Origin: Promethearchaeota archaeon
Lineage (GTDB): Archaea; Asgardarchaeota; Thorarchaeia; Thorarchaeales; Thorarchaeaceae
Length of the DNA stretch: 64,000 nucleotides
Assembly (NCBI GenBank): GCA_014728035.1
Contig: WJMJ01000079.1
Coordinates: 64,001-128,000 of the forward strand
Direction: 5' to 3'
In this document: in pieces, positions 10,730 to 30,030 of the stretch
Layout of the letters: every line of letters begins with the position of its first letter
How positions within the stretch are numbered: the stretch's first letter is position 1
The notes under the pieces: generated by a model
Database searches by the model: none
What the model saw: the letters and a program-made list of their open reading frames with translations, nothing else
What the model was told of the DNA's origin: nothing
Translations under genes and position numbers: made by a program

Positions 10730-10853
10730 ATTATCCTCCGTACTTTCGAGAGAGAGTACTATTTTATATGGCGCCATACATTGAGTATATTACTTGCCTT
10801 TTGAATGAAGAAGTTTTAATATGCCTTAATGTATATTTTATAGAACTAATAGT

Positions 10854-11314: not shown

Positions 11315-12070
11315 ATGATTGCAAAACTCGAAAGTCAGTTAACCCATATTTGCAATGATTCGGGTTACAGCTCGAAGATGATTGATGTAACATCAACACT
11401 TCAAATGATTTTCAATAATTCTGATAGGAGCATCATAAAGGCTCGCTTAAGATACGAAGGTCCTGATAATGACAGCTGGATTGTTGTTATTCTTGGATTG
11501 AGAAGCAGTATCCTTGAACCTTTCAACAAATTTACTCGGATCTCAAAAAATCAGTATCTTCCTTGTGATATATTTGGACTTGTTCCGTGTATTGCTCAAC
11601 TTGTGAGATTTGAATCATCAGGTCCATCTTTGAGTGCTGTTGCAAAAGATGATGTTACTAGAATCGTCTTGGTTTTTGAAGGCGACTCAAGTGCACGTTC
11701 TGGATGTATTAACTCCTTAGCAACTCGATTGTGGCGCTTTATGAAGCGCTGGGATGAGTGGACAAGTGTGCTGATGAATATTTTGGAAAAAGACCAGTAC
11801 ATTGGTGATTGGGATATCAATTGGCGAGAGCTTCTAGCAGGAGAATCGGGTTTTGTTACAATGCCATGGTTCTCACCACTACATTATGATGACCGTGTTC
11901 TTGCATTATCAAGAATTGTTATTTCATCAAAAGCACTTTTGACATCAGTTCTGAATGAACGACAGATGAGTGACCCTCTGATCAGGGGACTCATTAATTG
12001 GTTGGAAAATCTAGAACCTCTGTCACGTATCGTCAGTGCACCGTCAACTAATGAGGAGGTTGTGGTGTAG
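11315..12070 (+). CDS. hypothetical protein, operon gene 1
   Basis: 251-aa ORF with Trp-rich C-terminal half; overlaps the next gene. Confidence 0.75.
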   Translation: MIAKLESQLTHICNDSGYSSKMIDVTSTLQMIFNNSDRSIIKARLRYEGPDNDSWIVVILGLRSSILEPFNKFTRISKNQYLPCDIFGLVPCIAQLVRFESSGPSLSAVAKDDVTRIVLVFEGDSSARSGCINSLATRLWRFMKRWDEWTSVLMNILEKDQYIGDWDINWRELLAGESGFVTMPWFSPLHYDDRVLALSRIVISSKALLTSVLNERQMSDPLIRGLINWLENLEPLSRIVSAPSTNEEVVV

Positions 12071-12539
12071 TTTGTTAGTGAATGATCATTATAACTCATG
12101 TTGGTCTGGTGACATCGAATTACCGGATGTATCTTGGCTATCTGGTGCAAAAGCTGGATTGCAAATATCTGAAGGTAGAAGACCCGATTGGAACTGGGAT
12201 GAGTTTCTTTTAGATCTCGATGCGATGCTTCAGTATTTTAGTGATATTCAATCTGCGTTTCCTGGACAGGCACCATTGTTAGATGATGGTATTGTAGGTT
12301 CAATTCTTACCGCTCTCGGTGGTTATATCAGTGTTACCGGATATCTCCTTGATGATGGGTTATTCTTCAGGGTTTCTAAGAAATATCATGAAGATGTTAG
12401 AATTGCACTCTCAGGATATGATGTCCAACCTTATTGTGATGGGTTGATTATTTCTAAAACGGATCTGGCCAGACTTCAAAATATTTTGCCAATCCAAGGA
12501 CCGCTCTTTGAATTGATATACCAGGAGGTAATGACTTGA
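12036..12539 (+). CDS. hypothetical protein, operon gene 2
   Basis: ORF ends in a TTGA overlap with radA; true start probably after the GAGGAGG at ~12053. Confidence 0.65.
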   Translation: MHRQLMRRLWCSLLVNDHYNSCWSGDIELPDVSWLSGAKAGLQISEGRRPDWNWDEFLLDLDAMLQYFSDIQSAFPGQAPLLDDGIVGSILTALGGYISVTGYLLDDGLFFRVSKKYHEDVRIALSGYDVQPYCDGLIISKTDLARLQNILPIQGPLFELIYQEVMT

Positions 12540-13600
12540 CTGATTTAGAAGCAGTAAGTGGTGTTGGTCCTGCAGCTGCAAAGAAATTGCGAGAAGCTTT
12601 TGTCACCACTGCCGAATTGCTAGCAGTTCAAAATCCTATTGAACTTCAAACAAAGACAAAGCTGGGAGAAGGTACTGTTGATAAAATCATCAAGAGTGCT
12701 AGAGAGCTTGTTGGCACTTTTGGGTTCAAGAGTGGTTTGGAAGTGGAACAATCGATGGCTGACCAGCCAAGATTGTCAACTGGTATCTCTAAACTCGATA
12801 AGGAATTATTGGGTGGAATAGAAGCGGGATCTATTGTAGAATTTTTTGGACCGTCACGAGGTGGAAAAACCCAATGGGTTGCACAACTTGCAATCATGGC
12901 TCAGCTTCCAGCTGACAAAGGGGGTCTTGATGGTAGAGTCCTATGGCTTGATAGTGAGTCATCTTTCAAACCTTGGATAATTAGAGCCAACGCTTTACGT
13001 TTTGGAGTTGATCCCGATGTAGCGCTTGGTAATATTGGAAGAGCTCAAATAATTCTTAGCAGTCAGCTTATGGATTTGTTTGACACCATACCTCGACTAT
13101 GCGCTGAGAATGACTACAAACTGGTCATTGTTGACTCTCTCACTGGATTATTTCGTGCTGAGTATACTGGTTTGGATATGCTGAAAGTTCGACAACAGGA
13201 TATGAATGGCATTCTAAATACCATGCGACGAACTGCTTCTGCAACTGAGAGTATTTTTGCTTACACAAATCATGTCATGGCAAAAATTTCCCTTTATGGT
13301 GGTAATCCCAATGCCCCAGTTGGCGGACACATAATATCCCATGCATCCGATTATCGATTCTATACTCGCAGGTCAAAGAAGGATAAGCGTAAATTGGATT
13401 TGCAGGATAATGCGGGAGTACCAGAATTCAGTATGGAATTCACAATTGGATGGGGCGGCTTTTACGAATCAAGCTCTGAAAAGAAAGAAGTTGAACCAGA
13501 GATTAAGGCTTACTTCAAGAAACATGGGTATGCAAAACCAGAATTAATTGAAGAAGACGAAACAGAAGAAGAAGTGGTTACTGCAGGTGATTCAGAATGA
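12536..13600 (+). CDS. radA: RadA/Rad51-family recombinase (divergent paralog)
   Basis: N-terminal HhH (SGVGPAAAKKL), FKSG polymerisation motif, STG..LD..LGGIE, Walker A GPSRGGKT, DSE, Walker B VIVDS, FRAEY..RQQ, PVGGHIISHAS. Confidence 0.9.
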   Translation: MTDLEAVSGVGPAAAKKLREAFVTTAELLAVQNPIELQTKTKLGEGTVDKIIKSARELVGTFGFKSGLEVEQSMADQPRLSTGISKLDKELLGGIEAGSIVEFFGPSRGGKTQWVAQLAIMAQLPADKGGLDGRVLWLDSESSFKPWIIRANALRFGVDPDVALGNIGRAQIILSSQLMDLFDTIPRLCAENDYKLVIVDSLTGLFRAEYTGLDMLKVRQQDMNGILNTMRRTASATESIFAYTNHVMAKISLYGGNPNAPVGGHIISHASDYRFYTRRSKKDKRKLDLQDNAGVPEFSMEFTIGWGGFYESSSEKKEVEPEIKAYFKKHGYAKPELIEEDETEEEVVTAGDSE

Positions 13601-14040
13601 AAATGGAACGAGGTATGTTTCGGATATATCGTTGTCCTCAATGCAACAACATAGGGTATGCACGAGTTGAATCTGAAGACGATCTTTCTGCATGTAGTCT
13701 TTGCAGAGGAATAATCTTGCATGAACAAGGCACACTCTACGCTCCAACGGTCCAGGAGTCGGTTGGGATAGTGCGAGAATTAGTTATTCTTTCAAAAGAT
13801 GAACGAGAACCTCTTAGGTCACCAAGAGGACGCGGTCTGCGCAAAAGAATTCTCCAAATCGTATCATCACTCACTGAACTCAATCGCGGAAGGCCTGTTA
13901 AACTGAAAGAGATACTCCAAGAGTGTGTCGATGCTGATATCGACCTGGAGCGGGCTTTATCATTTCTTGAAGTTCTTGAACAAGAAGGGATTCTCGATAA
14001 GCTCGATTCCAAAGTTATTCTGAAACGTGAGGTAATATAA
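13597..14040 (+). CDS. Zn-ribbon + winged-helix protein
   Basis: CPQC...CSLC; C-terminal wHTH-like LKEILQEC...FLEVLEQEGIL; ATGA overlap with radA. Confidence 0.7.
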   Translation: MKMERGMFRIYRCPQCNNIGYARVESEDDLSACSLCRGIILHEQGTLYAPTVQESVGIVRELVILSKDEREPLRSPRGRGLRKRILQIVSSLTELNRGRPVKLKEILQECVDADIDLERALSFLEVLEQEGILDKLDSKVILKREVI

Positions 14041-14041
14041 A

Positions 14042-14677
14042 ATGGCAGAATCCAGCTCAAAGACAAAGTCAGATGTTATTTGGGTCCCGAGAACACCAAA
14101 GACAGTAAAACGTAGTTCTATGATAAATCTAGTTAATCTGCTCCTTAGAGAAACTACGCATAGAATCACTATTCTTGAAAAAACCGAAGAACCAGACCCA
14201 GAGTTATTTGTAGTAACTAGAATAGAGTGGAGAGATGCAGATATTCGAAAACCACTACTTCCACAATTACCACGATTGCTCTCGCTATTAGAAACCCTCA
14301 GAGGCACACGAGGTGTTCCTACAGAGATATATTTGGATAGTACTGATGGTATTGCGGTATATCTACCAACAAACGTAAGAATCTCTACTTTGCCCGAAAA
14401 ACCCAAAGAATGTGTTCACTATTTGATGGATCTAGTGGAAACTCAAATTGAACATACTTTTTCAACAATGAGAGAAGTGGAAAAATACTTCTGGATGAAT
14501 GCTAGGAAGAAGGGATTTAGCCCAGACATTGTTGCTAAAATTGACAAAAAAGAGAAATATTTTGATTCTTCAGAGCATGTATTTAGATTTCAATATCTTA
14601 TGCAGAGATATTTCTCAATAAGATTCAGAATTCATTCAAGTGAATCTTGTCTTCGTGTGGAGGCTGGTGGGTGTTAG
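14042..14677 (+). CDS. hypothetical protein, operon gene 5
   Basis: 211-aa ORF with GAGGT RBS; overlaps the helicase start. Confidence 0.75.
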   Translation: MAESSSKTKSDVIWVPRTPKTVKRSSMINLVNLLLRETTHRITILEKTEEPDPELFVVTRIEWRDADIRKPLLPQLPRLLSLLETLRGTRGVPTEIYLDSTDGIAVYLPTNVRISTLPEKPKECVHYLMDLVETQIEHTFSTMREVEKYFWMNARKKGFSPDIVAKIDKKEKYFDSSEHVFRFQYLMQRYFSIRFRIHSSESCLRVEAGGC

Positions 14678-16641
14678 TAGATAAAGCTGACCCCCTTCTA
14701 TGGTTCCCTTATGAGCCAAGACCACATCAGGACAAGGCTGTGAAATTAGCTGCTGAAGTATATCGTTCAGGAACTGTTGGATTGCTGTCTGCGGATTGTG
14801 GTGTTGGTAAAACAATAGCAGTTCTATCTGGATATTTAGCTGCAAGGTCAGAGGATTCTACATCAAGATTATTCGCATTAACACGAACACATTCTCAATC
14901 AAAAGTCTTTGAAGAAGAGCTTGAGATTCTAAGAGAGCAATCACTGACCATTACAGCCACATCCATGGTATCAAGAATTCATGTATGTCCCATTAAAGCT
15001 AAGATGTCAACAAGCACTTCTAAGGGATTCACAAAAGCATGTGCAAGTATGGTTAGAATTGGCAGATGTAGTCATTATTGGAATATGTACAAAAAACAAA
15101 AAAACGAAGGAAAACTAACAATTCGGGAAAATATTCGTGTTCTTTTAGAAGAGCTTCTAGATACTGGTGTTGTAAGCCGGGAACGAGCTGAAGACTTTGC
15201 CCAACTACATTCTCTATGTCCATATGAGGTATTACGATGGTGTGCTCGAAATAGTCGTGTTATCATTGGTCCTTACAGCTATGTATTTCGTTCACGCGTT
15301 CGTGACGCATTACTTTCTTCTATGGGTGTTCAACTTCACGAAATAGATTTGTTAGTAGATGAAGCTCATAATCTGCCATCTCATGTTCTTGACTCTGAAA
15401 CTGCGCGGTTAAGTGGAGAAGATTTGAAGTATCTGAAGGAACATAGCAAAGAACTCACCAAAGAAACTGGAGTAAAGTGGATTAGTGAGGTTATTGATTT
15501 TCTTTGGGAAACTCTCATGGTTAACTTGGATTCTTTAGGTAATCGAAGAGAAAAGAGATTGAACAAATGGGATGTCATGCCCAGATTCATTGATCAAGAA
15601 AATCTATTTCTTCTAGTTCAATCTCATGACTTGACGATAGGAGATCCTGAAAATGCCTTACATGCAGAGAATCCATTTGATAGACTTGTTGATTTTCTCC
15701 TAATTGGTAGTAAAGCAATTGAAAGTGAAGATTGGCACGTGTCACTTAATCTCTCGAAGAATTGGCAAAATGAAAGGTCACCGTTGCATACTAATTTAGC
15801 TATACGCCCATTAAACGCAGCTGGATTGACCGCTCCCATACTTCGGGGAGCAAGATCTGCATTATTAATGAGTGGAACACTACGCCCTCTGGATCACTAC
15901 TCCCGTCTACTTGGAGTTTCGACTGCTTTGAAAGAAGACCTTGAAAGTCCATACCCCAAAGGAAGTAGATTGGTCCTTATCGATAAGAAACTATCAACAA
16001 AATATAAGAAAAGGAATTCCACACTTTGGCGGAAATTGGCTGAAAGAATTAATACCGTGCTTCAGACCATGCCCGCAAATAAGAGTGCTATGATAGCTTT
16101 TCCAAGCTATAATATGATGCATGAGATTTTGAGTTATTCTATAGACACTGGTTTCCGTGGGAAAATAATTGAAAACCGAGGAGCAAGACTTGAATTTGTT
16201 ATTGAGGCTATTGAAGATTCTCCTCAAGCTGTCTTTTGTGTATACGGTGGAAAGTTTAGCGAAGGTATTGATATTGTTAAAGATGGTTCAAGTCTAATTG
16301 ATTTGATAATTGGTGTTGGAATTCCTTTTAGTCCACCAACAAGCTATCATCAAGCTATTCAAGACTGGTATAACCGAAAATTCGGTGATGGTGCTGGATA
16401 TTATTATTCTTCTGTGGTACCTTCACTAAGACAGGTTGCCCAACTTATTGGTCGTTTAAGGAGGTCTCCTTCAGACTGGGGAGTTGTCACTCTCTTAGAT
16501 AATCGATTTTTGAGGTATTTGAGCATCCTTGGAGATGGTATTGTATCTGATATTTGGCCATATGATGAAGTTAACGAGATTCGTTCTGCTATAGACGCAT
16601 TTGTTGAAATGAGAGTAGGTGATTGTTGTGAGAATAGCTAA
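14671..16641 (+). CDS. XPD/DinG/Rad3-family Fe-S 5'-3' DNA helicase
   Basis: Q-motif PYEPRPHQ, Walker A ADCGVGKT, four Fe-S Cys (HVCP, KAC, RCSHY, LCPYE), DEAHN, MSGTL, FSEGID, QLIGRLRR..DWG; start set at GTG 14671. Confidence 0.9.
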   Translation: MLVDKADPLLWFPYEPRPHQDKAVKLAAEVYRSGTVGLLSADCGVGKTIAVLSGYLAARSEDSTSRLFALTRTHSQSKVFEEELEILREQSLTITATSMVSRIHVCPIKAKMSTSTSKGFTKACASMVRIGRCSHYWNMYKKQKNEGKLTIRENIRVLLEELLDTGVVSRERAEDFAQLHSLCPYEVLRWCARNSRVIIGPYSYVFRSRVRDALLSSMGVQLHEIDLLVDEAHNLPSHVLDSETARLSGEDLKYLKEHSKELTKETGVKWISEVIDFLWETLMVNLDSLGNRREKRLNKWDVMPRFIDQENLFLLVQSHDLTIGDPENALHAENPFDRLVDFLLIGSKAIESEDWHVSLNLSKNWQNERSPLHTNLAIRPLNAAGLTAPILRGARSALLMSGTLRPLDHYSRLLGVSTALKEDLESPYPKGSRLVLIDKKLSTKYKKRNSTLWRKLAERINTVLQTMPANKSAMIAFPSYNMMHEILSYSIDTGFRGKIIENRGARLEFVIEAIEDSPQAVFCVYGGKFSEGIDIVKDGSSLIDLIIGVGIPFSPPTSYHQAIQDWYNRKFGDGAGYYYSSVVPSLRQVAQLIGRLRRSPSDWGVVTLLDNRFLRYLSILGDGIVSDIWPYDEVNEIRSAIDAFVEMRVGDCCENS

Positions 16642-17221
16642 AGAGAATACATATCTACTGACATTCATCGGAGCTATCCTAGTTGGTTTTACTATTAGGA
16701 TGATTTTCTATGAATCGCCATTTGAAATTATTATTAGTATTCTAGGTATCTGTATAATGATTGGTTTCATTGTGCTTCTATGGACCCGTTCGAACCCACA
16801 AGTATTATGGAATAAAACTTACAAATGCTTGGCTATTAATCGTAAATTTAGTGTGTCGGTCTTTGCTGGATGTACATTGGATAGTGTACCTCTTGGAATT
16901 GATCTCAGTCACTCTGCAAAAAAGGTGCTACGTGCACTTTCAACAAGATTGAATGATGACAGTGAATTTGAGGTTAGTTTCTTTGTGACTCGACCAAATA
17001 ACTCCTCCAGTACCCGTGTAGGTTTATTTGTTTCACGTAAAACCATGCGTTTACTTGATGGGGTTTCTCGTTCTGATTCTCTTCTAGAACAAATCAATCA
17101 AGATGTGATGACATTGCAGTCTGCTTTGAAGACTGCTTATCCTCATACTCCAATATCTAGGGCTAGCGCTGAAGATTTGATACTTGCAACAAATGGAGGT
17201 GTACTTTCTCATGAAGTCTAA
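16619..17221 (+). CDS. 2-TM membrane protein with soluble alpha/beta domain
   Basis: two N-terminal TM helices; overlaps both neighbouring genes. Confidence 0.7.
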   Translation: MIVVRIAKENTYLLTFIGAILVGFTIRMIFYESPFEIIISILGICIMIGFIVLLWTRSNPQVLWNKTYKCLAINRKFSVSVFAGCTLDSVPLGIDLSHSAKKVLRALSTRLNDDSEFEVSFFVTRPNNSSSTRVGLFVSRKTMRLLDGVSRSDSLLEQINQDVMTLQSALKTAYPHTPISRASAEDLILATNGGVLSHEV

Positions 17222-17513
17222 GATTAGAACTTCTATACAAATTTCTAGAGAAGTATCGCCTAATGAATTAATGGAATTCTTGAGAGTCGGACATGGGTAT
17301 GAGTGGACAATTCTTCTCCAACATCCAAGATTGCTCGCTCATGGAAAACCACCATCAACAAGATTACCTGAGTTATTGATAACCGGATGGGATACTATGA
17401 TTGTATCTGGAGGTCTCAAAGAGTATCCTGATAGAATCAGAAATATGATTGAAGTGCTTCGCAGAAGGTCTCAACGGAGCTATTCATCAACTGGAGGGAT
17501 AATTCATGGGTAG
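17211..17513 (+). CDS. small hypothetical protein
   Basis: GGAGGTG RBS before ATG 17211; overlaps both neighbours. Confidence 0.7.
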   Translation: MKSKIRTSIQISREVSPNELMEFLRVGHGYEWTILLQHPRLLAHGKPPSTRLPELLITGWDTMIVSGGLKEYPDRIRNMIEVLRRRSQRSYSSTGGIIHG

Positions 17514-19845
17514 ACCTTTGATATTGGGTTCAGAACCAGAGAAGGATCCATTAGATTACCGGTCAAAAAGAAAAGTATCAATTAGTACTGATGCTGAAAT
17601 TGATTGGGATGATAGAACACTAGAAAAAAGATATTCTGTTCCCATAGTGTTTGGATTGTTCATTTTACTATGTGTTTTGGCAAATCCTCTTTTCATGCTT
17701 GTAATTTCTATGAGTATTCTCTCAATAACTTACATTCTCACTAAAGTTCCAGATTCTCATGAGATTGAAACTATTAAGAATAGTCAATGGGTTTTATTGA
17801 AACCACGAAAAGATTTTCTTACAGAAACTGTTGATTCAGTGCTATATGTCGATAATGATGAAAGCCGTCATCTCGTTGCATTGAAAATTGATTCACCAAG
17901 CAATTTGCTTTTCGGGTCATTAGGCGGTTTGATTCGTGCTTTGGATACGGAACATGGATTTTCTCTCTGCATATCGATGCATACAGTTTCTATTGAACAT
18001 GTTCTTAATCAGGATCGAATTCATTCTACGAAAGAAGAATTTCTCGAATCAATAGGAACTTCTGGCAGGTCTCAATTCATATCAATCAGAGGTGGATTGT
18101 GGACTGCAAAAGTATCCTTAGTTGGCCATTTGAAACAACTCGATGATGTAATCACATTCGAATCTGCTGTACATGGTGGTGTGCCAACTTCCGGATGGTG
18201 TAGACTAGATGATCATGAATTGTTTACACTTCTCGCTTTTAATACCGTACTATCCTACCCTTCAGGATTTTATGCTCTTGGACACGAATTATCAGAATGG
18301 CTCGTTCAACTTCCAAGTGAATTGGCACCTGAGGTCGGTAGTAATGTGCCTAGCGAATTTCTATCTCCAATAAAAACAACAAATCCTGATTACTCGCTTG
18401 GTGTAGCTATCAATCCTGAAACCCTTCAAACCGGGCCAGAAGTTGGGTTTACTCATACTGACCTTATCAATGGAACTTTGGTATGTGGAGGAACAGAGTC
18501 AGAGAGAAAGCGTATCTTAGCATTGCTAATTCAAGAACTTCTGAAATCGGATAAGAGGGTTCTTTTTGTTACAAGCAATAGAAGTAACAAGGATTTAGCT
18601 GGAATACAAGAGGATTCTATTTCCCTAGACTTGGGTGGTGATTTCGTATTGAATCCAGTTGATCCTGATTTGGTTCCACGAACTGAATATGTTGGGCAAT
18701 TAATATCAGCTCTTGAGATTCTTGCAGGGGAGAATCTTTCAGGTGCTGCAGATTTGGAAATTGCACTCAATCGTGTAGTTGCACTTGGCAACACCACTGT
18801 GGCTGACATTCGATTTGATACTGCAGAAGAACTCATGGAGAATCCTTCATTTGAGCAAACATCACAGACTTCATCTCCTAGTAGAAAATCGCTAGCAGGC
18901 CTTGATGCAATAAGATTGTTGCATGAAGGATCTGGTGCAAGTGCATTCTATGGAACTCAGACAATTCCCATGCAAAGACTTACTCAAATCCCATTCACAG
19001 TCATATCAGTGAACTTGGGCTCAGTTGAATTGAATACCTTTGCTTGTGATTTGTTGATGATGAAACTTGCTGGACTTGAGCATGATTCAGATTTTGTTAT
19101 AATCTTTGATGAGCCCCTGAACCTGGTTGCTAGAAATCACAGACACCACTACAGAATACCTTGGATGGATTTCATAGCAAAACGAATGAAAAAACGTGGT
19201 CCTTTTGTTATTGCAATGGAACATCCTGCAGACTTCTCACCTACCACTATAGGTCTTTTGACATCTTGTGTTTCAGCCCGGTTGCGAGAATCAGCTGATG
19301 TGAAAGTATCTATTGACCTTCTTGGATTAAGTGTTATACAAACTGGAATGCATAGTAAGGCTCGTCATTCATCGCGTGAAACATCTTTCTTACGAGTAAT
19401 TCCTGATGGTGTTGCAGTACTTGCTAACACTGGAGGAGAGTTAGGATATCCAGTTAAGCTAGATGATATGCCAGAAATTGTATACGAGTTCTCTAAGGTC
19501 AACCTATCCGAACGATTACCCGATTTGAGCATAGCCCATGAAAGTAGCCATGATTCTTCTTCTTTAATAGAACATGTAATGGGTCGTGACATTAAGCATG
19601 GTGTTTCAGTTCTTCGACTTCTTCAAAGATATGAACCTCTTACTCTTGAATCTATTAAGAAATTCATTTCTACAACTACAGAAACTGCGCTAGATATTGA
19701 GAGCATATTATTACGTCTTGAGCAAGGGAGCATGATCCTAAAGGGGCATGAAGTTCACAGTGGCGTTTCCTATATGAACTATAGATTAACTATGAAAGGC
19801 ATAATGGCATTGAGACAGTATGATGGGGAGGGTTCTAGTATTTGA
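17506..19845 (+). CDS. membrane-anchored HerA/VirB4 (CedB-like) P-loop protein with degenerate Walker A and C-terminal wHTH
   Basis: TM region ~aa 45-80; SLG...DLINGTLVCGGTESERK (Walker A position), FVLNPVDP, VIIFDEP (Walker B), KRMKKRG; wHTH ending YRLTMKG. Confidence 0.6.
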   Translation: MGRPLILGSEPEKDPLDYRSKRKVSISTDAEIDWDDRTLEKRYSVPIVFGLFILLCVLANPLFMLVISMSILSITYILTKVPDSHEIETIKNSQWVLLKPRKDFLTETVDSVLYVDNDESRHLVALKIDSPSNLLFGSLGGLIRALDTEHGFSLCISMHTVSIEHVLNQDRIHSTKEEFLESIGTSGRSQFISIRGGLWTAKVSLVGHLKQLDDVITFESAVHGGVPTSGWCRLDDHELFTLLAFNTVLSYPSGFYALGHELSEWLVQLPSELAPEVGSNVPSEFLSPIKTTNPDYSLGVAINPETLQTGPEVGFTHTDLINGTLVCGGTESERKRILALLIQELLKSDKRVLFVTSNRSNKDLAGIQEDSISLDLGGDFVLNPVDPDLVPRTEYVGQLISALEILAGENLSGAADLEIALNRVVALGNTTVADIRFDTAEELMENPSFEQTSQTSSPSRKSLAGLDAIRLLHEGSGASAFYGTQTIPMQRLTQIPFTVISVNLGSVELNTFACDLLMMKLAGLEHDSDFVIIFDEPLNLVARNHRHHYRIPWMDFIAKRMKKRGPFVIAMEHPADFSPTTIGLLTSCVSARLRESADVKVSIDLLGLSVIQTGMHSKARHSSRETSFLRVIPDGVAVLANTGGELGYPVKLDDMPEIVYEFSKVNLSERLPDLSIAHESSHDSSSLIEHVMGRDIKHGVSVLRLLQRYEPLTLESIKKFISTTTETALDIESILLRLEQGSMILKGHEVHSGVSYMNYRLTMKGIMALRQYDGEGSSI

Positions 19846-22049
19846 CAACGGTGACAGAAACTCAACATCCAGTAGAAAAAATTCTTCAATCTATTGGGAT
19901 TATACCTCGAGGTGTCCAAGATGATGCAATTAATGCTGGAATACTTGAAGGAAAAAGTATCATGGTTTCAAGTCCAACCGGGTCAGGAAAAACCTTGGTC
20001 GGGGAGATAGCACTACTTAGAGCAACGTTGGACTCCAAAAAAGGACTTTATCTTGTTCCACTTCGAGCACTTGCTGTTCAAATTGCTAAGATATTGGATG
20101 AACGGTATGGTACTCAAGGTATTTCAATTGGTTTGAGTACTGGAGATTTTCACACGACAGGTGAAGAACTTTCATCATATGATATCATTGTAACAACTTA
20201 TGAGAGAGCTGATTCTTTACTTCGGAGAAATGCATCTTGGCTGCCATCACTTGGAACAGTTGTGATAGATGAGGTACAGACATTATCTGATAGTTATAGA
20301 GGAGCTAGATTAGAGTCTACAATAATTCGACTCAAACGATTGGTATCTGATTTGCAAATGATTGTATTATCAGCAACTATAGATGCACCAGAAGAAATAG
20401 CTGAGTGGTTGAATTGTGAATTAATTGTTTCTAATAAACGCCCAATACCACTTCATTGTAGAATCATTTCAACTAGCAACAAATCTGCGGCTATGAAGGA
20501 GATAGCTATGACTACTGTTCAGAGCAATGGGCAGTGTTTACTTTTCCATCGAACCCGTAGAGCAGCAGAATCTCAGGCTGTCAAACTTGCAGCTGAAGTT
20601 GGTCGTCAGTTCACAACTGAGGAAAAAAAGAATATTGATGCCGAATTGGAATCGGTAGTGAATTGGGATGTACGATTACCTGCTGATTTGAAAGCGCTCC
20701 TTCATGATGGTACTGCTTATCATCATGCAGGATTGGACTATCAAGCAAGACGCCTAATTGAAGAACTTTTCAAGAGAGGTATGATTAGGGTAATTTGTGC
20801 CACAACAACTTTGGCATCGGGTATTAACCTTCCAGCACGAACTGTTGTTCTTGCATCTGTTAGATCTCCCTCGAATCATAACACATTCTTATCTGGAAAT
20901 CAGATTCATCAGATGCTAGGAAGAGCTGGTCGTCCAGGATTTGATAACAGAGGAATCGGTGTTATTCTTGTTGGCAGTTCTGGAGAGGCTGATTTAGTTC
21001 GTCATAAATATTTCAAAACCATTACGGGAATTGATGGTAAAACAAAGGAGCTTCATCCAAAATATGATAGACTATCTAGTAAACTGAATCAGGCAAATGC
21101 TCTCACAGAGCAATTACTTGTGTCCTTTGACCTATACGGCTCCTCCACTATTGAAACTATTAAAAATGGTATTTTCTCCGAGTCCTTTTTGATGTTCTGT
21201 AGCGTTCGTGATACTAAATCTCCGCATCGTATATTACAACTTGGAGAGATTTCTGCAATTACCTCTATTGAACGTCATGCTTTACAAGATGCAATTCTAT
21301 CTGCCAGACAAAATGTTCTTGCATCAGTAAAACTTAGAGAGAAGACTGATTCCGTTATAGGAGGGATAGTAACTGTCTGGCAGGGTGGGAACTTCACATC
21401 AAGATTCTCAGCTAAATTATCACCAGATGGAACTGTGGAAGGTCCTATGTGTTCATGTGGCTCTCCATTGGATTCCTATGGAATCCTTTGTCCACATTTG
21501 GTAGCTTTAGGATTTGCTGCATCAAAAGAACTTGGAGCTATAGCAGATTATGTAATTCCTTTGGCACTATCAGAAACAAGTCCATTGGGGGTACTTACAA
21601 AATTATCCCTTGTTGAAGGTGGAGAGGATGGAGAATATATCATAACACATCTTGGAAGAGTTGTTAATCGACTCTATCTAAGCATCCCAACAATCCGAGA
21701 AATGATTGCTATCCTTCCATTCACTGAATCATCTGGAGACCTTCTCTGGTTATTGCGGCATCTTGTTGCGATTGAATCGGGTTCCACCTTAGATGAATCA
21801 TATGATAATCTGGTAGCTGGTGTAGCCAGCACTGACATTGAGGTTAGCAAACTTGCAGAGAATCTTGGATTACATGTGGGCGATGCATTTGGACTATTAG
21901 AAACCTCAAGATGGCTTCTTTCTGCAATTTCTGCCATAAGTGAAATTGGTGGATTTGAACAATTAACAACAAGATCGCTGGATCTATTAGAATCGCTAGA
22001 TCGAAGTCTTGGAAAAAAAAGTGAAAATATCCGGGAGAAAGAGAAATAA
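19842..22049 (+). CDS. Hel308/Ski2-like SF2 helicase with inserted SWIM zinc finger
   Basis: SPTGSGKT, VPLRALA, TTYER, DEVQ, LSAT, HHAGL, TTTLASGINLPA, QMLGRAGRPG; SWIM CSC-x10-CPH at 21450-21497. Confidence 0.88.
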   Translation: MTTVTETQHPVEKILQSIGIIPRGVQDDAINAGILEGKSIMVSSPTGSGKTLVGEIALLRATLDSKKGLYLVPLRALAVQIAKILDERYGTQGISIGLSTGDFHTTGEELSSYDIIVTTYERADSLLRRNASWLPSLGTVVIDEVQTLSDSYRGARLESTIIRLKRLVSDLQMIVLSATIDAPEEIAEWLNCELIVSNKRPIPLHCRIISTSNKSAAMKEIAMTTVQSNGQCLLFHRTRRAAESQAVKLAAEVGRQFTTEEKKNIDAELESVVNWDVRLPADLKALLHDGTAYHHAGLDYQARRLIEELFKRGMIRVICATTTLASGINLPARTVVLASVRSPSNHNTFLSGNQIHQMLGRAGRPGFDNRGIGVILVGSSGEADLVRHKYFKTITGIDGKTKELHPKYDRLSSKLNQANALTEQLLVSFDLYGSSTIETIKNGIFSESFLMFCSVRDTKSPHRILQLGEISAITSIERHALQDAILSARQNVLASVKLREKTDSVIGGIVTVWQGGNFTSRFSAKLSPDGTVEGPMCSCGSPLDSYGILCPHLVALGFAASKELGAIADYVIPLALSETSPLGVLTKLSLVEGGEDGEYIITHLGRVVNRLYLSIPTIREMIAILPFTESSGDLLWLLRHLVAIESGSTLDESYDNLVAGVASTDIEVSKLAENLGLHVGDAFGLLETSRWLLSAISAISEIGGFEQLTTRSLDLLESLDRSLGKKSENIREKEK

Positions 22050-23608
22050 TGGCAATTTCAGATGAGAGAGAATCAAAAATTGTATCAACTGATACAACTG
22101 ATGAAATAGAAACAGAATATGATATTGTGAAAGCCCTAGAGGCAACTGGACACCTGACTCATACTTATGAAAATGGTTTGGTTCTTGGTGTACGACTGGA
22201 AGGTGTGAAAGGTACGCGTGGTGTACATTTGGATATAGTCCACATCCTTGACCTTAGGAAAGCAGAGTTTGGTAAAACTAGTTTAGCCATGCGGGCTGCA
22301 GTTTTAGAGAGTATGAATAGAGACCTCGAATCCATTCTTGAAGATGTTGACCTTCATACATTTTTGGATGCCCAGACGATCACTACTGCTTGGGGTCGAA
22401 TTCAGATTCCTCTTCTTGGGTCTGGAGACCATCCTTCCAAATCTATGATACACGAAACTCGAACGGTGTATGTCATTGTAAAGGATACAAAATCTTCAAA
22501 GGACTTTTCTTGGCTAACTGAATCCAAAAGGGTCGTTACCCCTGAAGAATTTGCCTTTTTACGTCTCACTGATACCAAGTCACTTAGAAGTGAATTGAAA
22601 AACCAAATCACCTCAGAAAAATGGAAGTTGCTTGAAAAGGGATTTAGGGATAGCTGGCTAGGAATCATATTTTCTTCAATAATATTACTTGGCATAGGAA
22701 CAATTGTTGGCATTCTTTTTGCCAATCAAGGAAATATGGCTGCTCCAATCATTTCAATTATTATTGGTTTGATGGTTGGAGGTGCATTCTTGAGTTCATC
22801 AAGGACAAGTCTTTCTGAATTTCGGAAGATAGTTTCAGAAGAGGAAAGAAAATTATCTGAAATGGGAGATAAAACAAGAATAGAGTTATCCGTACTTGAA
22901 AATCAAGATGACATGCGCCTCTTGGGCGATTTGAATTTCATAGTGTCTCCCTTAATGGCACAAGCTGCAAATGCTCTTTCGAGTGCTGAATATGATAATG
23001 CGGTCAGTTCGGTTTGTTCTGTGATGGATGAATGTATGCGTTTTTCACCGAGCGACCTAGATACAATAAAAAGTTCACTTGTTGGAGGTGATGAGGGATT
23101 GGCAAAATTTGTTGGGTTCTTTGCTGAGCTTGGGGCTGATGAATATGAGACTGATTTGGCATTGGCTTATGTAGCTTTAACTGGCTATGCAATCGACCCT
23201 ATTTCTGCTGAAGAAGTCATAACTCATATTGCAACCCTCAATAATGCCCTCTATCATATTGGAGCTTTGCGCCCAGATGTGAAGGAGATTATTGATGATT
23301 TATTGAATTCGCGTGCAGGGAAGGAAGCTGTAGAGTATTTAAACGAAGAGCTAAGTAAACCGTTAGAACCAATTCCCGATCCAGTAGAAATCGATGACGG
23401 TGAAAGCGAAGACCACTTGAAAGACACTTCAACCATTTCAAGTGAGATGGATTCATTAAAGGAGTTCATAACAGAATCGGAAGCAACGCAAGTTGAATCA
23501 GGTGAACCATTAGAAGATGTGGATTTAGATGACATATCAATGACAGGGTCTGATATCGTTTCCAGGATAAATATGGATATAACACCGGAGGATGAAGAAT
23601 CTGATTAG
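22049..23608 (+). CDS. 2-TM membrane protein with large soluble domains and acidic tail
   Basis: TM pair ~aa 203-248; TAATG coupling to the helicase. Confidence 0.75.
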   Translation: MAISDERESKIVSTDTTDEIETEYDIVKALEATGHLTHTYENGLVLGVRLEGVKGTRGVHLDIVHILDLRKAEFGKTSLAMRAAVLESMNRDLESILEDVDLHTFLDAQTITTAWGRIQIPLLGSGDHPSKSMIHETRTVYVIVKDTKSSKDFSWLTESKRVVTPEEFAFLRLTDTKSLRSELKNQITSEKWKLLEKGFRDSWLGIIFSSIILLGIGTIVGILFANQGNMAAPIISIIIGLMVGGAFLSSSRTSLSEFRKIVSEEERKLSEMGDKTRIELSVLENQDDMRLLGDLNFIVSPLMAQAANALSSAEYDNAVSSVCSVMDECMRFSPSDLDTIKSSLVGGDEGLAKFVGFFAELGADEYETDLALAYVALTGYAIDPISAEEVITHIATLNNALYHIGALRPDVKEIIDDLLNSRAGKEAVEYLNEELSKPLEPIPDPVEIDDGESEDHLKDTSTISSEMDSLKEFITESEATQVESGEPLEDVDLDDISMTGSDIVSRINMDITPEDEESD

Positions 23609-24302
23609 TGTTTCACAAATATCAGAACTTGTTCTTTTTCCTGGTTTGATGCATATTTGGGGAAAAGCGGGTTCTGGAAAAACAAGCTTGGCAGTCGCTC
23701 TTGCTTCTTACGCGTCAAGAAAAGGGCCCGTAGAATGGATATGTACTGACGGGAAGAAGCTATTCCTTCCTCAATTGAAGAAGAATATCATACAGCAGAG
23801 GGGTAATATTGATACAGTCACTGTACAGATACCTCAATCCTACCATGAGAGCCAACAAGCGATTCTGAACCTAGTTGAAGATATATCTCCTCTTACAAAG
23901 TGTATTGTAATCGATTCGATAACTAGAGCCCTAGATATGAGTCATGATGAATCACAACTCTGGGGAAGAGAACTGATCGAAGAAGTATTACCAACCCTTG
24001 CAAGTTTAAGTTTAGCAAGAAGAATTCAAATTATCATTACTAGTGAGATACGAGAAATTCCAGACAGAGGACCAGTTCCAGTTCTACATGATGTTATTAA
24101 TCGCTGGTCTGATGTAGAACTTGCTGTCAGAAAATCAGTAAATCCAAGAGTTTCAGAGATTTTCCTCTATTCTTCTAATTCTCCAGAATTCAGTCTGATA
24201 GGTTCTATCTCACTGAATTCTAATCAAGTAGCATCACTTCATGATACAGATACCGAAAAAACAATTGGAGGACATAGTAGTGTTCAGCAAGGGACTGTTT
24301 AA
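23592..24302 (+). CDS. RadB/Rad51-paralog-like RecA-fold ATPase
   Basis: HIWGKAGSGKT Walker A, WICTDG, IVIDSI Walker B, IIITSEIRE; lacks the RadA N-terminal domain. Confidence 0.8.
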   Translation: MKNLISVSQISELVLFPGLMHIWGKAGSGKTSLAVALASYASRKGPVEWICTDGKKLFLPQLKKNIIQQRGNIDTVTVQIPQSYHESQQAILNLVEDISPLTKCIVIDSITRALDMSHDESQLWGRELIEEVLPTLASLSLARRIQIIITSEIREIPDRGPVPVLHDVINRWSDVELAVRKSVNPRVSEIFLYSSNSPEFSLIGSISLNSNQVASLHDTDTEKTIGGHSSVQQGTV

Positions 24303-25245
24303 GCTTGTTGGAATTGGAATTACCATTGCTATTGCTTTACTCATTGGATCAAATATTATCACCTCGATTATAGCAATTGTCAGTGAAGCTAAAGCAGGTA
24401 ATCCTTTCCCCTTGATTTTGATTTACATATCCACAGTAGTGATTGTTGTTATCTCTCGTTTTTTCGATGACAAAGCTATAACTGGTGTTTTATTGCGAAT
24501 CAGTTCACTTATTGCAATCTCTTATTCTGGGATTTTGTCTTTCGTAATCGGAATTCCTTATGGGATAGCTATCTCTCTAACATTCTTTGCACTCACGACA
24601 CTGTTTTTCGCAGCGCTATATGACCCGTCTGAGATTAGGAGCTTTCTGAATTCTGATGAATATCTAAGCCAGTTAAGTAAAATTAGGAAATGGACTACAG
24701 GAGATTCTTATCAAAGTGCAGGGATTTCAACAACACTATTGAATCTACATAGGGTTCTACTAATTTCTCAAGATGATCGATCAAAAGTTATTAGCTTACT
24801 CAAGAGTCGGCCCTATTTGCCAATTTCACTCCACCATTTTGTGGATTGTGATGTTGTGATTCTATCTATCAATCCTGAAGAAACCAATCAAACATGTAGA
24901 ATCATCGCACTTTTCAAAGAACTGCAAATTGATTCAGCAAAAGAAGCTCCCAATCTTATGGCTGAAGCTATATTATCAATTCCTTTACTTGATGAGCAGA
25001 ATGGGATCATTAAGAGCGATTATAGAGTTGTAAAGTCCGAATCATCGGTTCAAAATCTGCTTGAAACGTTTCCTATACGAATGATAGTCATTGGGCATCC
25101 TGAAGGATTGCAAGTTCTCCTTCCAGAACATGAAATTCTTGGTGTTGACTCTCAACCACTTCCAGCGGGTCATGAAAATGAGATTTTACTAATGCATAAT
25201 TTTCAATCGATACGGGAGGTATCAAAAAATGCGAATATCACTTAG
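24280..25245 (+). CDS. 4-TM membrane protein with C-terminal soluble domain
   Basis: four N-terminal hydrophobic helices; GGAGG RBS before GTG 24280. Confidence 0.7.
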   Translation: MFSKGLFKLVGIGITIAIALLIGSNIITSIIAIVSEAKAGNPFPLILIYISTVVIVVISRFFDDKAITGVLLRISSLIAISYSGILSFVIGIPYGIAISLTFFALTTLFFAALYDPSEIRSFLNSDEYLSQLSKIRKWTTGDSYQSAGISTTLLNLHRVLLISQDDRSKVISLLKSRPYLPISLHHFVDCDVVILSINPEETNQTCRIIALFKELQIDSAKEAPNLMAEAILSIPLLDEQNGIIKSDYRVVKSESSVQNLLETFPIRMIVIGHPEGLQVLLPEHEILGVDSQPLPAGHENEILLMHNFQSIREVSKNANIT

Positions 25246-25945
25246 TGCTTTTGATGTTGATGATATAGAAAATCCAATAATTCGTCTTTATCCGGAGGTC
25301 CTTCATCGTTCTGTAGGTCGATTGTTACTTCCTGGACAAATCAGTTTGTTGTACGGTGAAACTAAAGCACCTCTTACTCGATTGGCACATTTTATTACTT
25401 GTTCTATCGCAGAGAAACATCAAGTGCTATTTCTTGATTCGAGCAATAATTATAATGCCTCTCTTGTTAAACGGTATTTAGAAAGATTTCAGAATCGTAG
25501 AGATGTTCTAGAAAACATTCTAGTAGGAAAAGTGCTCTCTCTTTCTGATTTAGTTAATCTAACTGAACAAGTAGATGAGATTCAGAATCTGCGCTGTATT
25601 GTCCTTGATAGTTTAAGTGGAGTATTGAATCTTAGTGGCTCTCCTGGTGCCATCGAGCGACAGAGATTTCTTTTCAAAACTCTTCACGTTATGAGAAAGC
25701 TAGTCAATTTAACAGACATTCATTTTGTATCTACGAGTTATTCAACTCAAGATTGGGATACTGGAGAAAGAAGGCCTATAGGAGGTAATGTTCTAGCTCA
25801 TAATCTGGATTCTATTCTTCGAGTTAATATTATTGATGAGAAAAAGAAAATTTTGCAAATAGAAATCGAGCGCAGCTCAATGCCCACTAATCATGATATT
25901 TTTGCTCTGAAAAGCTCAATATCTGGATTTAGAACTATTTCGTGA
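25229..25945 (+). CDS. RadB/Rad51-paralog-like protein with degenerate Walker A
   Basis: GQISLLYGETKAPLT (no GKT), VLFLDS..Y, LENILV, IVLDSL, RPIGGNVLAH. Confidence 0.75.
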   Translation: MRISLSAFDVDDIENPIIRLYPEVLHRSVGRLLLPGQISLLYGETKAPLTRLAHFITCSIAEKHQVLFLDSSNNYNASLVKRYLERFQNRRDVLENILVGKVLSLSDLVNLTEQVDEIQNLRCIVLDSLSGVLNLSGSPGAIERQRFLFKTLHVMRKLVNLTDIHFVSTSYSTQDWDTGERRPIGGNVLAHNLDSILRVNIIDEKKKILQIEIERSSMPTNHDIFALKSSISGFRTIS

Positions 25946-25955
25946 TGGTGATTCC

Positions 25956-26945
25956 ATGGGTGTAAAGGGTTGGAATTTTATTCCTTGGCGATGGGTTGAA
26001 CTTGATGAAATCATTCAAGGCCCGATTGCCATAGATGTACCAAATTATTTGACTCGTAGATTAACTGTATTCAGATCTCAAAGAATACAAAATGGAAGAA
26101 TTCCTCTTCAGCATGTGAGTGTGATTTTGAGCATCATCAAATCCGCATTGGCACACAAAATAACACCTCTATTTCTTTTTGATGGCCCTCCTGAATCGCT
26201 GAAACGAAAACCTAACCCCTCACTCTTGATCGAAGCTCAAAATTTGTACAAGGAGTTTCGAAAAACCAATGATGCGTTTGATGATTCGATTTCTGAACGT
26301 CTCTATAATAGTCCTGCTATTAGAATGTATTTTGTTATGGAACATACAAAGGATATTGCGTCTTATTGTGGAATTCCTGTAATTAGGTCTCCAAGTGAAG
26401 CAGAACTTTTTGGTGCATTACTCTGCAAACAAAAATTAGCTACCACAGTTGTCTCAAATGATGTTGATGCATTACTATTTGGAAGTCATCATGTAACCAA
26501 ACAATTGCAATTTTCAAAAGAAATGATTCATCGAACAACAATTAGTGATTTGAAAGATGTCTTGAACCTTAACCTTTCACAACTCAGAGATTTAGCTATA
26601 CTATGTGGGTGTGATTTCTACCCTTCTGGACTGAAAGGAATTGGACCAAGAAAAGGTGCTGCTTTACTCAATCGTCATGGGAATCTCTCTAACGTATTAG
26701 ATTCACAAGGAATTTATGGTGTTGAGAAAGAGGATATGATTCGAGCACGTGAAGTTTTCGACGAAGCTAGTTACCTCTCAATTCATGGAGTTAATACTTC
26801 TCTGCGCCCTCCATTAGTTTCAAAATTGGAAAACATTTTGCATCCTGTTCTTGGTTCAGATCGAGCCAACACGTGGGCTTATGAAATGGTATCATTATGG
26901 AAAAGGTTCAGAGTGAAGCAGGCAACATTAGATAAATGGATTTGA
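25956..26945 (+). CDS. FEN1/XPG-family structure-specific nuclease (divergent), C-terminal PIP box
   Basis: MGV start, AID, FDG.PP..K, PSEAE, SNDVDALLFG, GCDF...GLKGIGP (H2TH), QATLDKWI. Confidence 0.88.
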   Translation: MGVKGWNFIPWRWVELDEIIQGPIAIDVPNYLTRRLTVFRSQRIQNGRIPLQHVSVILSIIKSALAHKITPLFLFDGPPESLKRKPNPSLLIEAQNLYKEFRKTNDAFDDSISERLYNSPAIRMYFVMEHTKDIASYCGIPVIRSPSEAELFGALLCKQKLATTVVSNDVDALLFGSHHVTKQLQFSKEMIHRTTISDLKDVLNLNLSQLRDLAILCGCDFYPSGLKGIGPRKGAALLNRHGNLSNVLDSQGIYGVEKEDMIRAREVFDEASYLSIHGVNTSLRPPLVSKLENILHPVLGSDRANTWAYEMVSLWKRFRVKQATLDKWI

Positions 26946-29883: not shown

Positions 29884-30030
29884 AAATAGATACCAAGTCC
29901 CGGGTAGATTCTGATTTTTCAGGTCATGGAGGTCCCCCCTCATTTTCGACTAAACCACGCCAAAATAACTCCAACTATAATTTCCGGGACACCCTCTTTA
30001 TTTCGTATGTTCATCTTGGGAGGTATATTC

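Follow-up and report, generated by a model that had tools for sequence, protein, structure and literature searches.

A SWIM module inside the winged-helix domain of a Hel308-type helicase encoded among Rad51-family genes in an Asgard archaeon

Among the closest described systems to the one presented here are two eukaryotic partnerships: the Shu complex, in which Rad51 paralogues are bound by Shu2/SWS1, proteins of small size with a SWIM domain (CxCxnCxHxxA), that of Shu2 contacting Shu1 (PMC5727457, PMC6316741), and the helicase HELQ, which binds the Rad51-paralogue complex BCDX2 (PMC3778836, PMC13623763). A published tree places the eukaryotic HELQ/POLQ branch with the Hel308 helicases of Asgard archaea (PMC10946056). 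The subject of this report is a Hel308-type helicase gene with a SWIM insertion, located on a stretch of 64,000 nucleotides from an archaeon of the Thorarchaeaceae (assembly GCA_014728035.1, contig WJMJ01000079.1, positions 64,001 to 128,000; hereafter the window, whose first letter is position 1), in which the helicase shares a 15-gene operon with two genes of the Rad51 family. The gene, which encodes 735 residues, is probably the Thorarchaeota member of an Asgard-wide set of Hel308-type 3'-5' helicases that bear a SWIM module in winged-helix (WH) domain 3, carried here by a vertically inherited recombination or repair operon. The finding touches on the question of how Hel308/HELQ and the Rad51 paralogues, which are central to recombination control, came to cooperate, as well as on where the Shu complex acquired its SWIM subunit, and a Hel308-SWIM gene beside RadB-type genes provides a concrete system in which to ask what the SWIM finger does for a recombination helicase.

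Two reviews of the Hel308 family (2024 and 2026; PMC10946056, PMC13623763) make no mention of SWIM or zinc in Hel308, and a full-text search of open papers found none that describes a SWIM or zinc module in this helicase. New here are the comparison of Asgard with non-Asgard Hel308s, the reciprocal SWIM profile search, the insertion site between Hjm residues 451 and 458, the placing of the two Rad51-family proteins on the RadB and RadA sides of a tree, and the recognition of the SWIM-bearing copy as the best Hel308 candidate of its genome.

The helicase and the site of its insertion

The helicase gene (19842..22049, plus strand) begins with a TTG codon that overlaps the stop codon of the upstream gene (TTGA at 19842), and public records list its close homologues under the name Candidatus Thorarchaeota. 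Its motor, residues 26-410, matches Hel308 of the PDB entry 2p6r with an E-value of 3e-72 (247 bits, over 29-409), and archaeal Hel308/Hjm (2p6r, 2va8, 2zj2), together with the HELQ and POLQ helicase domains, provide the best matches in both sequence and fold. An AF2 model of the whole protein has a pLDDT of 90.5, and its top Foldseek matches are Hel308/Hjm over their full length, with TM scores of 0.63-0.73. The NCBIfam models of Hel308 recognize only the first ~410 residues, at 284.6 bits for NF040935 (cut-off 1200) and 335.4 bits for NF002654 (cut-off 887); since these scores are far below the equivalog cut-offs, a difference from described Hel308 proteins in itself, the protein is filed as Hel308-type by sequence, and not as an NCBIfam equivalog. 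The motor motifs are found as Walker A SPTGSGKT (motif I, 19971-19994), DEVQ (motif II, 20268-20279) and QMLGRAGRPG (motif VI, 20910-20939), all on the plus strand, and residues G47-T51, D143, E144 and G360-R364 are invariant across 61 helicase orthologues. Motif II reads DE[VI]Q in the Thorarchaeota copies, in contrast to DExH in other Asgard copies and in Hel308/Hjm. Behind the motor, both the alignment of a C-terminal profile to Hjm and the Foldseek comparison identify WH domain 3 and ratchet domain 4, whereas the helix-hairpin-helix (HhH) domain 5 of Hel308/Hjm is absent: the Thorarchaeota copies stop after the ratchet helices. Domain 5 appears to be kept in other Asgard helicases: the copies from two further families (L056, L060) run ~50 residues past the ratchet, with HhH-like sequence.

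The SWIM signature, C537-x-C539-x10-C550-x-H552-x-x-A555, lies at 21450..21506 on the plus strand; its Cys/His part, CSCGSPLDSYGILCPH (helicase residues 537-552, nt 21450-21497), falls exactly where a first-pass annotation of the window had put it. Taken by itself, the motif could be a chance occurrence, because the bare pattern CxCx6-25CxH is not rare in the window, where the six-frame translation holds two further instances. One of these, CSCx7CHH at nt 12571, is in a frame other than that of the RadA paralogue gene it falls in, and is attributed to chance; the other has a stop codon inside. The motif of the helicase is not a chance pattern, because its four ligands are conserved. C537, C539, C550 and H552 are invariant in 20 orthologues of related genomes (31-76% identity over the C-terminal region), as well as in the 61-sequence alignment, where G534, S538 and L553 are equally invariant. 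The same four residues are found in all 18 loci examined from further Asgard families, and a set of 20 representative proteins also has them, including those bearing the names Baldrarchaeia, Hermodarchaeia, Lokiarchaeota, Hodarchaeota and 'Asgardarchaeia', and that of the cultured Promethearchaeum syntrophicum. The Cys/His conservation on which the first-pass annotation had staked its proposal is thus seen both within the family and across Asgard lineages, while A555 of the CxHxxA element is present here and in most, not all, orthologues.

The C-terminal profile aligns to Hjm (2zj2) at residues 393-451, then at 458-506, and finally at 576-649, leaving ~114 profile positions without a counterpart between Hjm 451 and 458; as a result, the SWIM module (residues ~463-578) is placed inside WH domain 3, and the earlier placing of the finger in the C-terminal region of the helicase becomes a defined insertion site. 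Profile alignment and model delimit an insertion of ~110 residues at 21228..21575 (plus strand), which is a difference from Hel308/Hjm. In the model, the insertion opens with short helices, continues with four beta strands over residues 494-537 and is completed by a helix at 551-564, with a pLDDT of ~90; CxC terminates the fourth strand, and the helix begins at CxH. A 93-residue segment modelled alone has the same strands-then-helix layout, with a pLDDT of 87.6.

No other gene of the genome is as good a Hel308 candidate as the SWIM-bearing one, which is by far the closest, in sequence, to characterised Hel308. The only other Hel308-like protein to which the NCBIfam Hel308 models align over their full extent has 892 residues, lacks SWIM and scores 107 bits against 2p6r; it carries a 140-residue N-terminal extension and is encoded at G000:C25:227608-230283 (L163:1608-4283, minus strand). 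The remaining Ski2-like genes of the genome resemble ASH-Ski2, Lhr-type and other helicases.

Identity and distribution of the SWIM module

The assignment of the module to the SWIM family was approached from both directions. The Pfam family PF04434, whose gathering score is 19.6 bits, matches 7 of 16 orthologue segments, with a best E-value of 4.6e-4 and no credible rival family. In the reciprocal search, a profile of the SWIM region built from 14 Asgard segments was run against 1.84 billion representative proteins, and retrieved 80 representatives at E <= 1e-3. About one third of these are helicases of 700-860 residues, matched at residues ~490-630, and many others are proteins of 88-170 residues; among ten non-helicase matches that were sampled, eight exceed the Pfam SWIM cut-off, including a bacterial SNF2-SWIM ATPase. 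In this reciprocal form, the SWIM profile search that the first-pass annotation had called for bears out its identification: the profile recovers SWIM proteins validated by Pfam. Structural comparison is less specific. A VIA-align search with the SWIM model placed ZSWIM8 (9rwz_M) at rank 2 (Z 4.5, rmsd 4.5, 76 aligned residues, 20% identity), Foldseek of the 93-residue subdomain model against the PDB gave nothing at E <= 0.001, and sequence-profile searches of the PDB with the SWIM region gave nothing significant. Two results count against the assignment: the window's own SWIM segment finds no Pfam match at E <= 10, and the structural match to ZSWIM8 is weak and tied with unrelated sulfatase subdomains. 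On the strength of its sequence relatives, the module is considered a genuine SWIM domain with predicted zinc binding; the fold evidence is consistent with this, not decisive.

The module shares with PF04434 proteins, such as bacterial SNF2-SWIM, ZSWIM8 and Shu2/SWS1, the arrangement CxCxnCxH(xxA), with n = 9-10 here, and probably, going by the model, the succession of strands and helix with ligands at the strand end and the helix start. It differs from them in being embedded in a Hel308 domain, and not N-terminal or stand-alone.

A second SWIM-bearing protein is encoded elsewhere in the genome. This inactive helicase paralogue of 739 residues (G000:C25:247060-249279; L055:7063-9279, minus strand) is devoid of Walker A and DExH motifs and adjoins genes for a succinyl-CoA ligase and a beta-CASP nuclease. 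It keeps CSCx12CKH at the same relative place, and matches PF04434 with 21.3 bits in six-frame translation, a score that drops to 16.6 bits when the complete protein is searched.

The C-terminal profile matches 108 of the 201 Asgard genomes sampled, including all 43 of the window's family, most of which give two matches, corresponding to the operon copy and the inactive paralogue. The full-length alignment was also scanned against one genome per prokaryotic species, and the resulting 80 named loci were scored with the profiles built for this analysis. The motif occurs in every named Asgard hit (Jordarchaeia, Promethearchaeota/Lokiarchaeia, Thorarchaeota and Hermodarchaeota), each of which is also matched by the SWIM profile, with E-values of 1e-10 to 1e-29. 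Motif and profile match were found in none of the ~55 non-Asgard Hel308s sampled, which came from Archaeoglobaceae, Methanothermococcus, Micrarchaeota, Desulfurococcales, Sulfolobales, Thermoplasmata, Poseidoniia, haloarchaea, Methanobrevibacter, Parvarchaeota and Aenigmatarchaeota; three hits named 'uncultured archaeon' equally lack the motif. Among the helicases sampled, the SWIM insert is thus a sequence marker of Asgard Hel308-type proteins, and its occurrence in P. syntrophicum places it in a cultured organism.

It is of note that two of the helicase orthologues (L012, in G006:C26, and L018, in G011:C63) contain one in-frame stop each (TGA and TAA, respectively) and are otherwise intact; these could be sequencing errors or recent pseudogenes.

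The operon and its two Rad51-family proteins

The operon extends over 11315..26945 on the plus strand and consists of 15 packed or overlapping open reading frames lying between genes of the opposite strand. Their order is g251, g167, a RadA paralogue (RadA2), g147, g211, an XPD paralogue, g200, g109, g779, Hel308-SWIM, TM519, RadB-like 1, TM334, RadB-like 2 and a FEN1 paralogue, starts and stops overlapping in the TAATG at 22049 and over 17 nt at 23592 and 25229. The first-pass annotation had described the helicase as followed by two RadB-like proteins, one with an intact and one with a degenerate Walker A. Both P-loop states, GKAGSGKT and GETKAPLT, were confirmed; the two genes do not directly follow the helicase, since a membrane-protein gene precedes each of them.

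RadB-like 1 (23592..24302, plus strand) is a RecA-fold core of 236 residues with Walker A GKAGSGKT at 23661-23684 and Walker B CIVIDS at 23901-23918; the GxxGSGKT-type Walker A and the Walker B are conserved in 14 orthologues. It scores 41.4 bits (E 1.4e-10) against the RadB model TIGR02237, and gives no match to Pfam Rad51 (PF08423). A profile of the 14 orthologues finds RadB (2cvf) at E 3.3e-6 over residues 17-190, followed by RAD51D (2.4e-3) and XRCC3 (5.9e-3). RadB-like 2 (25229..25945, plus strand) is a RadA/Rad51-type core of 238 residues that lacks the N-terminal domain, and carries the P-loop GETKAPLT (25355-25378), Walker B CIVLDS (25595-25612) and the segment PIGGNVLAH (25775-25801), all on the plus strand. 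Its orthologues keep GPER[AS]PLT in place of the P-loop, with no Lys-Thr/Ser. It reaches 45 bits against the RadB model, whose cut-off is 172.4, and passes Pfam Rad51 (E 2.4e-9, 37.3 bits, cut-off 22); its profile matches RadA, Rad51 and DMC1 at E 5e-16 to 1e-11 (over 21-235), RAD51D at 3e-9 and RadB at 9e-5. A match to Pfam CSM2 is sub-threshold (E 0.021, 14.9 bits, cut-off 27). In a database search, close relatives of RadB-like 2 bear only Thorarchaeota or Promethearchaeota names; beyond these, no match lies between E 1e-46 and 1e-14, where the canonical RadA/Rad51 proteins appear.

A quick maximum-likelihood tree, used solely for the split between RadB and RadA sides and containing no eukaryotic paralogues, separates the two proteins with 97% SH-aLRT and long branches. 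On the RadB-like side are RadB-like 1, the RadB-like gene beside the canonical XPD of this genome, and the Hel308-SWIM neighbours of other Asgard families; on the RadA side are RadA, the RadA paralogue and RadB-like 2. By sequence, RadB-like 1 is a divergent RadB-type protein and RadB-like 2 is derived from RadA, and both look lineage-specific. With archaeal RadB (2cvf), RAD51D and XRCC3 they share a RecA-fold core of ~240 residues that lacks the N-terminal HhH; Walker A and B are both intact in RadB-like 1, whereas RadB-like 2 retains Walker B along with the GGN-x-x-x-H loop and has lost the P-loop lysine, as have several eukaryotic paralogues and Shu subunits. They differ from RadB in scoring far under its equivalog cut-off, and RadB-like 2 is nearer to RadA/Rad51 than to RadB; a further difference from RadB and the RAD51 paralogues is the alternation of their genes with those of membrane proteins. 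In the quick tree, no other protein of this genome is closer to RadB-like 1 than the RadB-like one encoded beside the canonical XPD, which also has 236 residues (the gene pair is at G000:C25:46644-50003), and XPD and RadB-type genes are hence paired twice in this genome.

These results allow the locus to be compared with the eukaryotic systems. The first-pass annotation had seen in it a 'Rosetta stone' linking these partners and relevant to the origin of eukaryotic recombination mediators. Spelled out, this view makes the locus a prokaryotic forerunner of both the Shu complex and HELQ-BCDX2, in which the SWIM module would dock the two paralogues directly and from whose fused form the eukaryotic partners would descend. 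The components do resemble one another: a Hel308/HELQ-type helicase, a CxCxnCxHxxA SWIM finger, and an active and an inactive Rad51-family core, the latter with a degenerate P-loop, are all linked in an Asgard archaeon, and the linkage recurs in Jordarchaeia, in a probably baldrarchaeial genome and in family f12. The published tree joining HELQ/POLQ to Asgard Hel308 (PMC10946056), the binding of BCDX2 by HELQ (PMC3778836, PMC13623763) and the sub-threshold CSM2 match of RadB-like 2 (E 0.021) agree with such a descent. Specific kinship is what fails to appear. The SWIM profile has no significant likeness to Shu2, to which two of its only three PDB hits belong (5xyn_D and 9q2c_F, at E 5.9 and 9), and no specific resemblance to the Shu2/SWS1 subfamily, proposed for comparison by the first-pass annotation, emerged from it; where stand-alone relatives of the module have names, they are generic SWIM proteins of prokaryotes; and among the proteins retrieved by the profile search, none that carries the insert resembles HELQ or POLQ. 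The tree puts RadB-like 1 together with RadB-like proteins of archaea, and the close relatives of RadB-like 2, which bear only Thorarchaeota or Promethearchaeota names, are followed by RadA/Rad51 and by no class of paralogue. In addition, the module is general to Asgard Hel308, including that of Lokiarchaeia, which has no RadB-like neighbour, and the paralogue genes alternate with membrane-protein genes. In organisation, SWIM is here part of a 735-residue helicase and not a separate small protein such as Shu2/SWS1, and the predicted system occupies a 15-gene operon with membrane proteins, a second RadA, XPD and FEN1, in contrast to both Shu and HELQ-BCDX2. It thus appears improbable that the locus preserves an ancestral fused form in which SWIM was the docking site for Rad51-family mediators, the module being later lost from HELQ and its role assumed by SWS1/Shu2; were this true, the Asgard helicase and its RadB-type neighbours would represent the fused ancestor of the HELQ-BCDX2 and SWS1/Shu2-paralogue partnerships. 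What stands of the earlier proposal is the SWIM module with its conserved ligands, the Hel308/HELQ type of the helicase, the RecA/RadA cores and the linkage, and not a specific homology to Shu or BCDX2.

Conservation of the neighbourhood and possible functions

A tblastn search recovered the same operon order from 14 genomes that represent at least 12 genera of the family, and it was seen again in named Thorarchaeota contigs. In other Asgard lineages, parts of the arrangement recur. Jordarchaeia have the order Hel308-SWIM, g147-like gene and Rad51-family gene (Pfam, 58 bits), with FEN1, RadA and a g779-like gene within 9 kb; in family f12, a RadB-like gene adjoins Hel308-SWIM and a g147-like gene is also present; and in a probably baldrarchaeial genome (G031), a RadB/KaiC-like gene lies one gene upstream of Hel308-SWIM, and a g779-like gene downstream. 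The chance of finding a Rad51-family gene within 9 kb of a given gene is ~3%, for ~6 such genes in a genome of 3-4 Mb. Outside Thorarchaeota, g147 is the most constant direct neighbour of Hel308-SWIM: the hidden Markov model of the operon gene gives 33-37 bits beside the Jordarchaeia helicase, is matched also in f12, and is matched more weakly in Lokiarchaeia, which makes g147 a candidate partner of the helicase. Such conservation of the neighbourhood lends good support to a functional link between the helicase and RadB-type proteins. The link does not extend to every lineage, and g147 and g779 accompany the helicase no less constantly.

Several observations weigh against the reading given at the outset. 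The loci of Lokiarchaeia, the best-sampled class, have no RadB-like neighbour, although g779-like and weak g147-like genes are present, and a second family of the window's own order has the helicase with TM519, g779, XPD and RadA2 and is devoid of both RadB-like genes. In the window, the RadB-like genes alternate with membrane-protein genes, and their direct partners could be those membrane proteins and not the helicase. Contact between the helicase and the paralogues is putative: a complex prediction with RadB-like 1, RadB-like 2 and helicase residues 400-735 gave a score of 0.00, which counts neither for nor against it. Finally, the presence in the genome of the 892-residue Hel308-like gene means that the SWIM copy may be a specialised paralogue, not the sole orthologue. 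Weak 'RadA2' matches noted beside Lokiarchaeia helicases turned out to be proteins of ~700 residues that share the HhH domain only, and are not recombinases.

From the domain identities, the insertion site, the conservation of the ligands, the P-loop states and the synteny we infer a working model, every functional step of which, including the binding target of SWIM, is put forward on that footing. Most likely, the operon would specify a module devoted to homologous recombination or repair, with filaments built by RadA2. The pair of active and inactive paralogues would serve as filament mediators, as is thought for RadB and for the eukaryotic Rad51 paralogues, and filaments, D-loops or forks would be the substrates that the Hel308-SWIM motor remodels. 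Projecting from the WH domain involved in substrate recognition, the SWIM module would provide an additional surface on which a partner protein or branched DNA could dock.

Because the Lokiarchaeia Hel308-SWIM has no RadB-like neighbour, the insert is independent of such a gene, and it occurs in all Asgard classes sampled, with or without an adjacent RadB-like gene. It may be, although we consider this less probable, that SWIM is a nucleic-acid-recognition add-on to the WH domain that tunes loading onto branched DNA and is unrelated to the Rad51-family neighbours, a view compatible with a recombination operon. Insertion inside WH domain 3 agrees with it, given the role in substrate recognition ascribed to this domain in the Hel308/HELQ review (PMC13623763), and SWIM has been predicted to bind both DNA and protein (PMC5727457). 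Nevertheless, Shu2, the one SWIM protein with solved partners, makes protein contacts, and Shu1-Shu2 binds no DNA (PMC5727457); in addition, this view offers no reason why RadB-like, g147-like and g779-like genes are repeatedly found near the helicase.

The remaining genes of the operon bear upon its possible function as well. Besides the helicase, second copies of three recombination and repair genes are present, all on the plus strand: the full-length RadA paralogue, with HhH and core (12536..13600; Pfam Rad51 179.5 bits, HHH_5; NF003301 255.9 bits, cut-off 259), an XPD/Rad3-type helicase (14647..16641; Pfam DEAD_2, Helicase_C_2 and HBB; TIGR00604 172 bits, cut-off 247), and a FEN1/XPG-type flap endonuclease (25956..26945; Pfam XPG_I and XPG_N; TIGR03674 118 bits, cut-off 352). 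The canonical copies lie elsewhere in the genome (RadA at G000:C45:15033, with 316 bits to PF08423; XPD at G000:C25:48138-50003; FEN1, with 452 bits). The operon also encodes several small uncharacterised proteins, among them the 147-residue g147 (13597..14040, plus strand), which belongs to no family, its only Atlas leads being DUF1922 and DUF5817.

Transmembrane (TM) segments are predicted in 4 of the 15 operon proteins. Among these, g779 (17506..19845, plus strand; 779 residues) has a single N-terminal TM segment, and its gene is translationally coupled to the helicase by the TTGA overlap. TM519 (22049..23608, plus strand; 519 residues) has a central hairpin of two TM segments (~206-248) and an acidic tail; it matched nothing in Pfam, NCBIfam, PADLOC or Atlas, and its gene stays adjacent to that of the helicase, even in the order's second family. 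TM334 (24241..25245, plus strand; 334 residues) carries four TM segments towards its N-terminus, followed by a C-terminal half that is soluble, matches no known family in Pfam, NCBIfam or PADLOC, and conserves its position in the family. A profile of 14 g779 orthologues has as its sole PDB matches two HerA-type NTPases, 8j4u_M (E 0.015) and 8xau (E 0.13), both weak, and g779 is possibly HerA/FtsK-like.

These membrane proteins evoke a membrane-tethered machine for DNA uptake or cell-to-cell exchange, coupled to recombination, in which g779 and the other membrane proteins would handle DNA at the envelope, its processing and integration being left to the helicases, FEN1, RadA2 and the paralogues. 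The HerA likeness of g779, the presence of g779-like genes with Hel308-SWIM in several Asgard classes, and the large toroid surface protein encoded beside the module both here and in the probably baldrarchaeial operon speak for such a machine. On the other hand, that likeness is weak, Pfam and NCBIfam scans revealed no pilus, pore or secretion ATPase family among the operon proteins, and anchoring might just as well assist repair where the chromosome is attached to the membrane; the proposal is hence held tentatively, at a probability well below that of the recombination or repair module.

The motor of this Ski2-like helicase does match PADLOC models for HamB and PDC-M23B (1e-43 to 1e-15), HamB being also among its PDB matches. 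A defence system or mobile-element module built around this helicase, for instance a Hachiman-like one, is nonetheless very improbable and is rejected here. The PADLOC matches (HamB, PDC-M23B, BrxH) concern the motor only and are much weaker than the match to Hel308 (335 bits), and no other operon protein has a defence match save a weak one of mad8 to RadB-like 1 (E 8e-5). All 43 sampled genomes of the family contain the cluster, sequence identity declining smoothly from 75% to 38%, as in vertical descent, and no break in base composition was found across the operon region.

Two further genes flank the operon in the window. Upstream, a GH3-family protein of 533 residues (9176-10777, minus strand) contains all three GH3 domains, of the acyl-acid amido synthetase type (E 8e-31). 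Just past the operon, at 29926-37899 (plus strand), is the gene for a protein of 2657 residues that combines a prenyltransferase-type alpha/alpha toroid with Ig-like repeats. The same toroid occurs in a protein of 1081 residues (L062:13283-16528, minus strand) whose gene heads the probably baldrarchaeial operon holding a RadB-like gene and Hel308-SWIM, and the association of a surface-type toroid protein with the recombination module has thus been seen twice.

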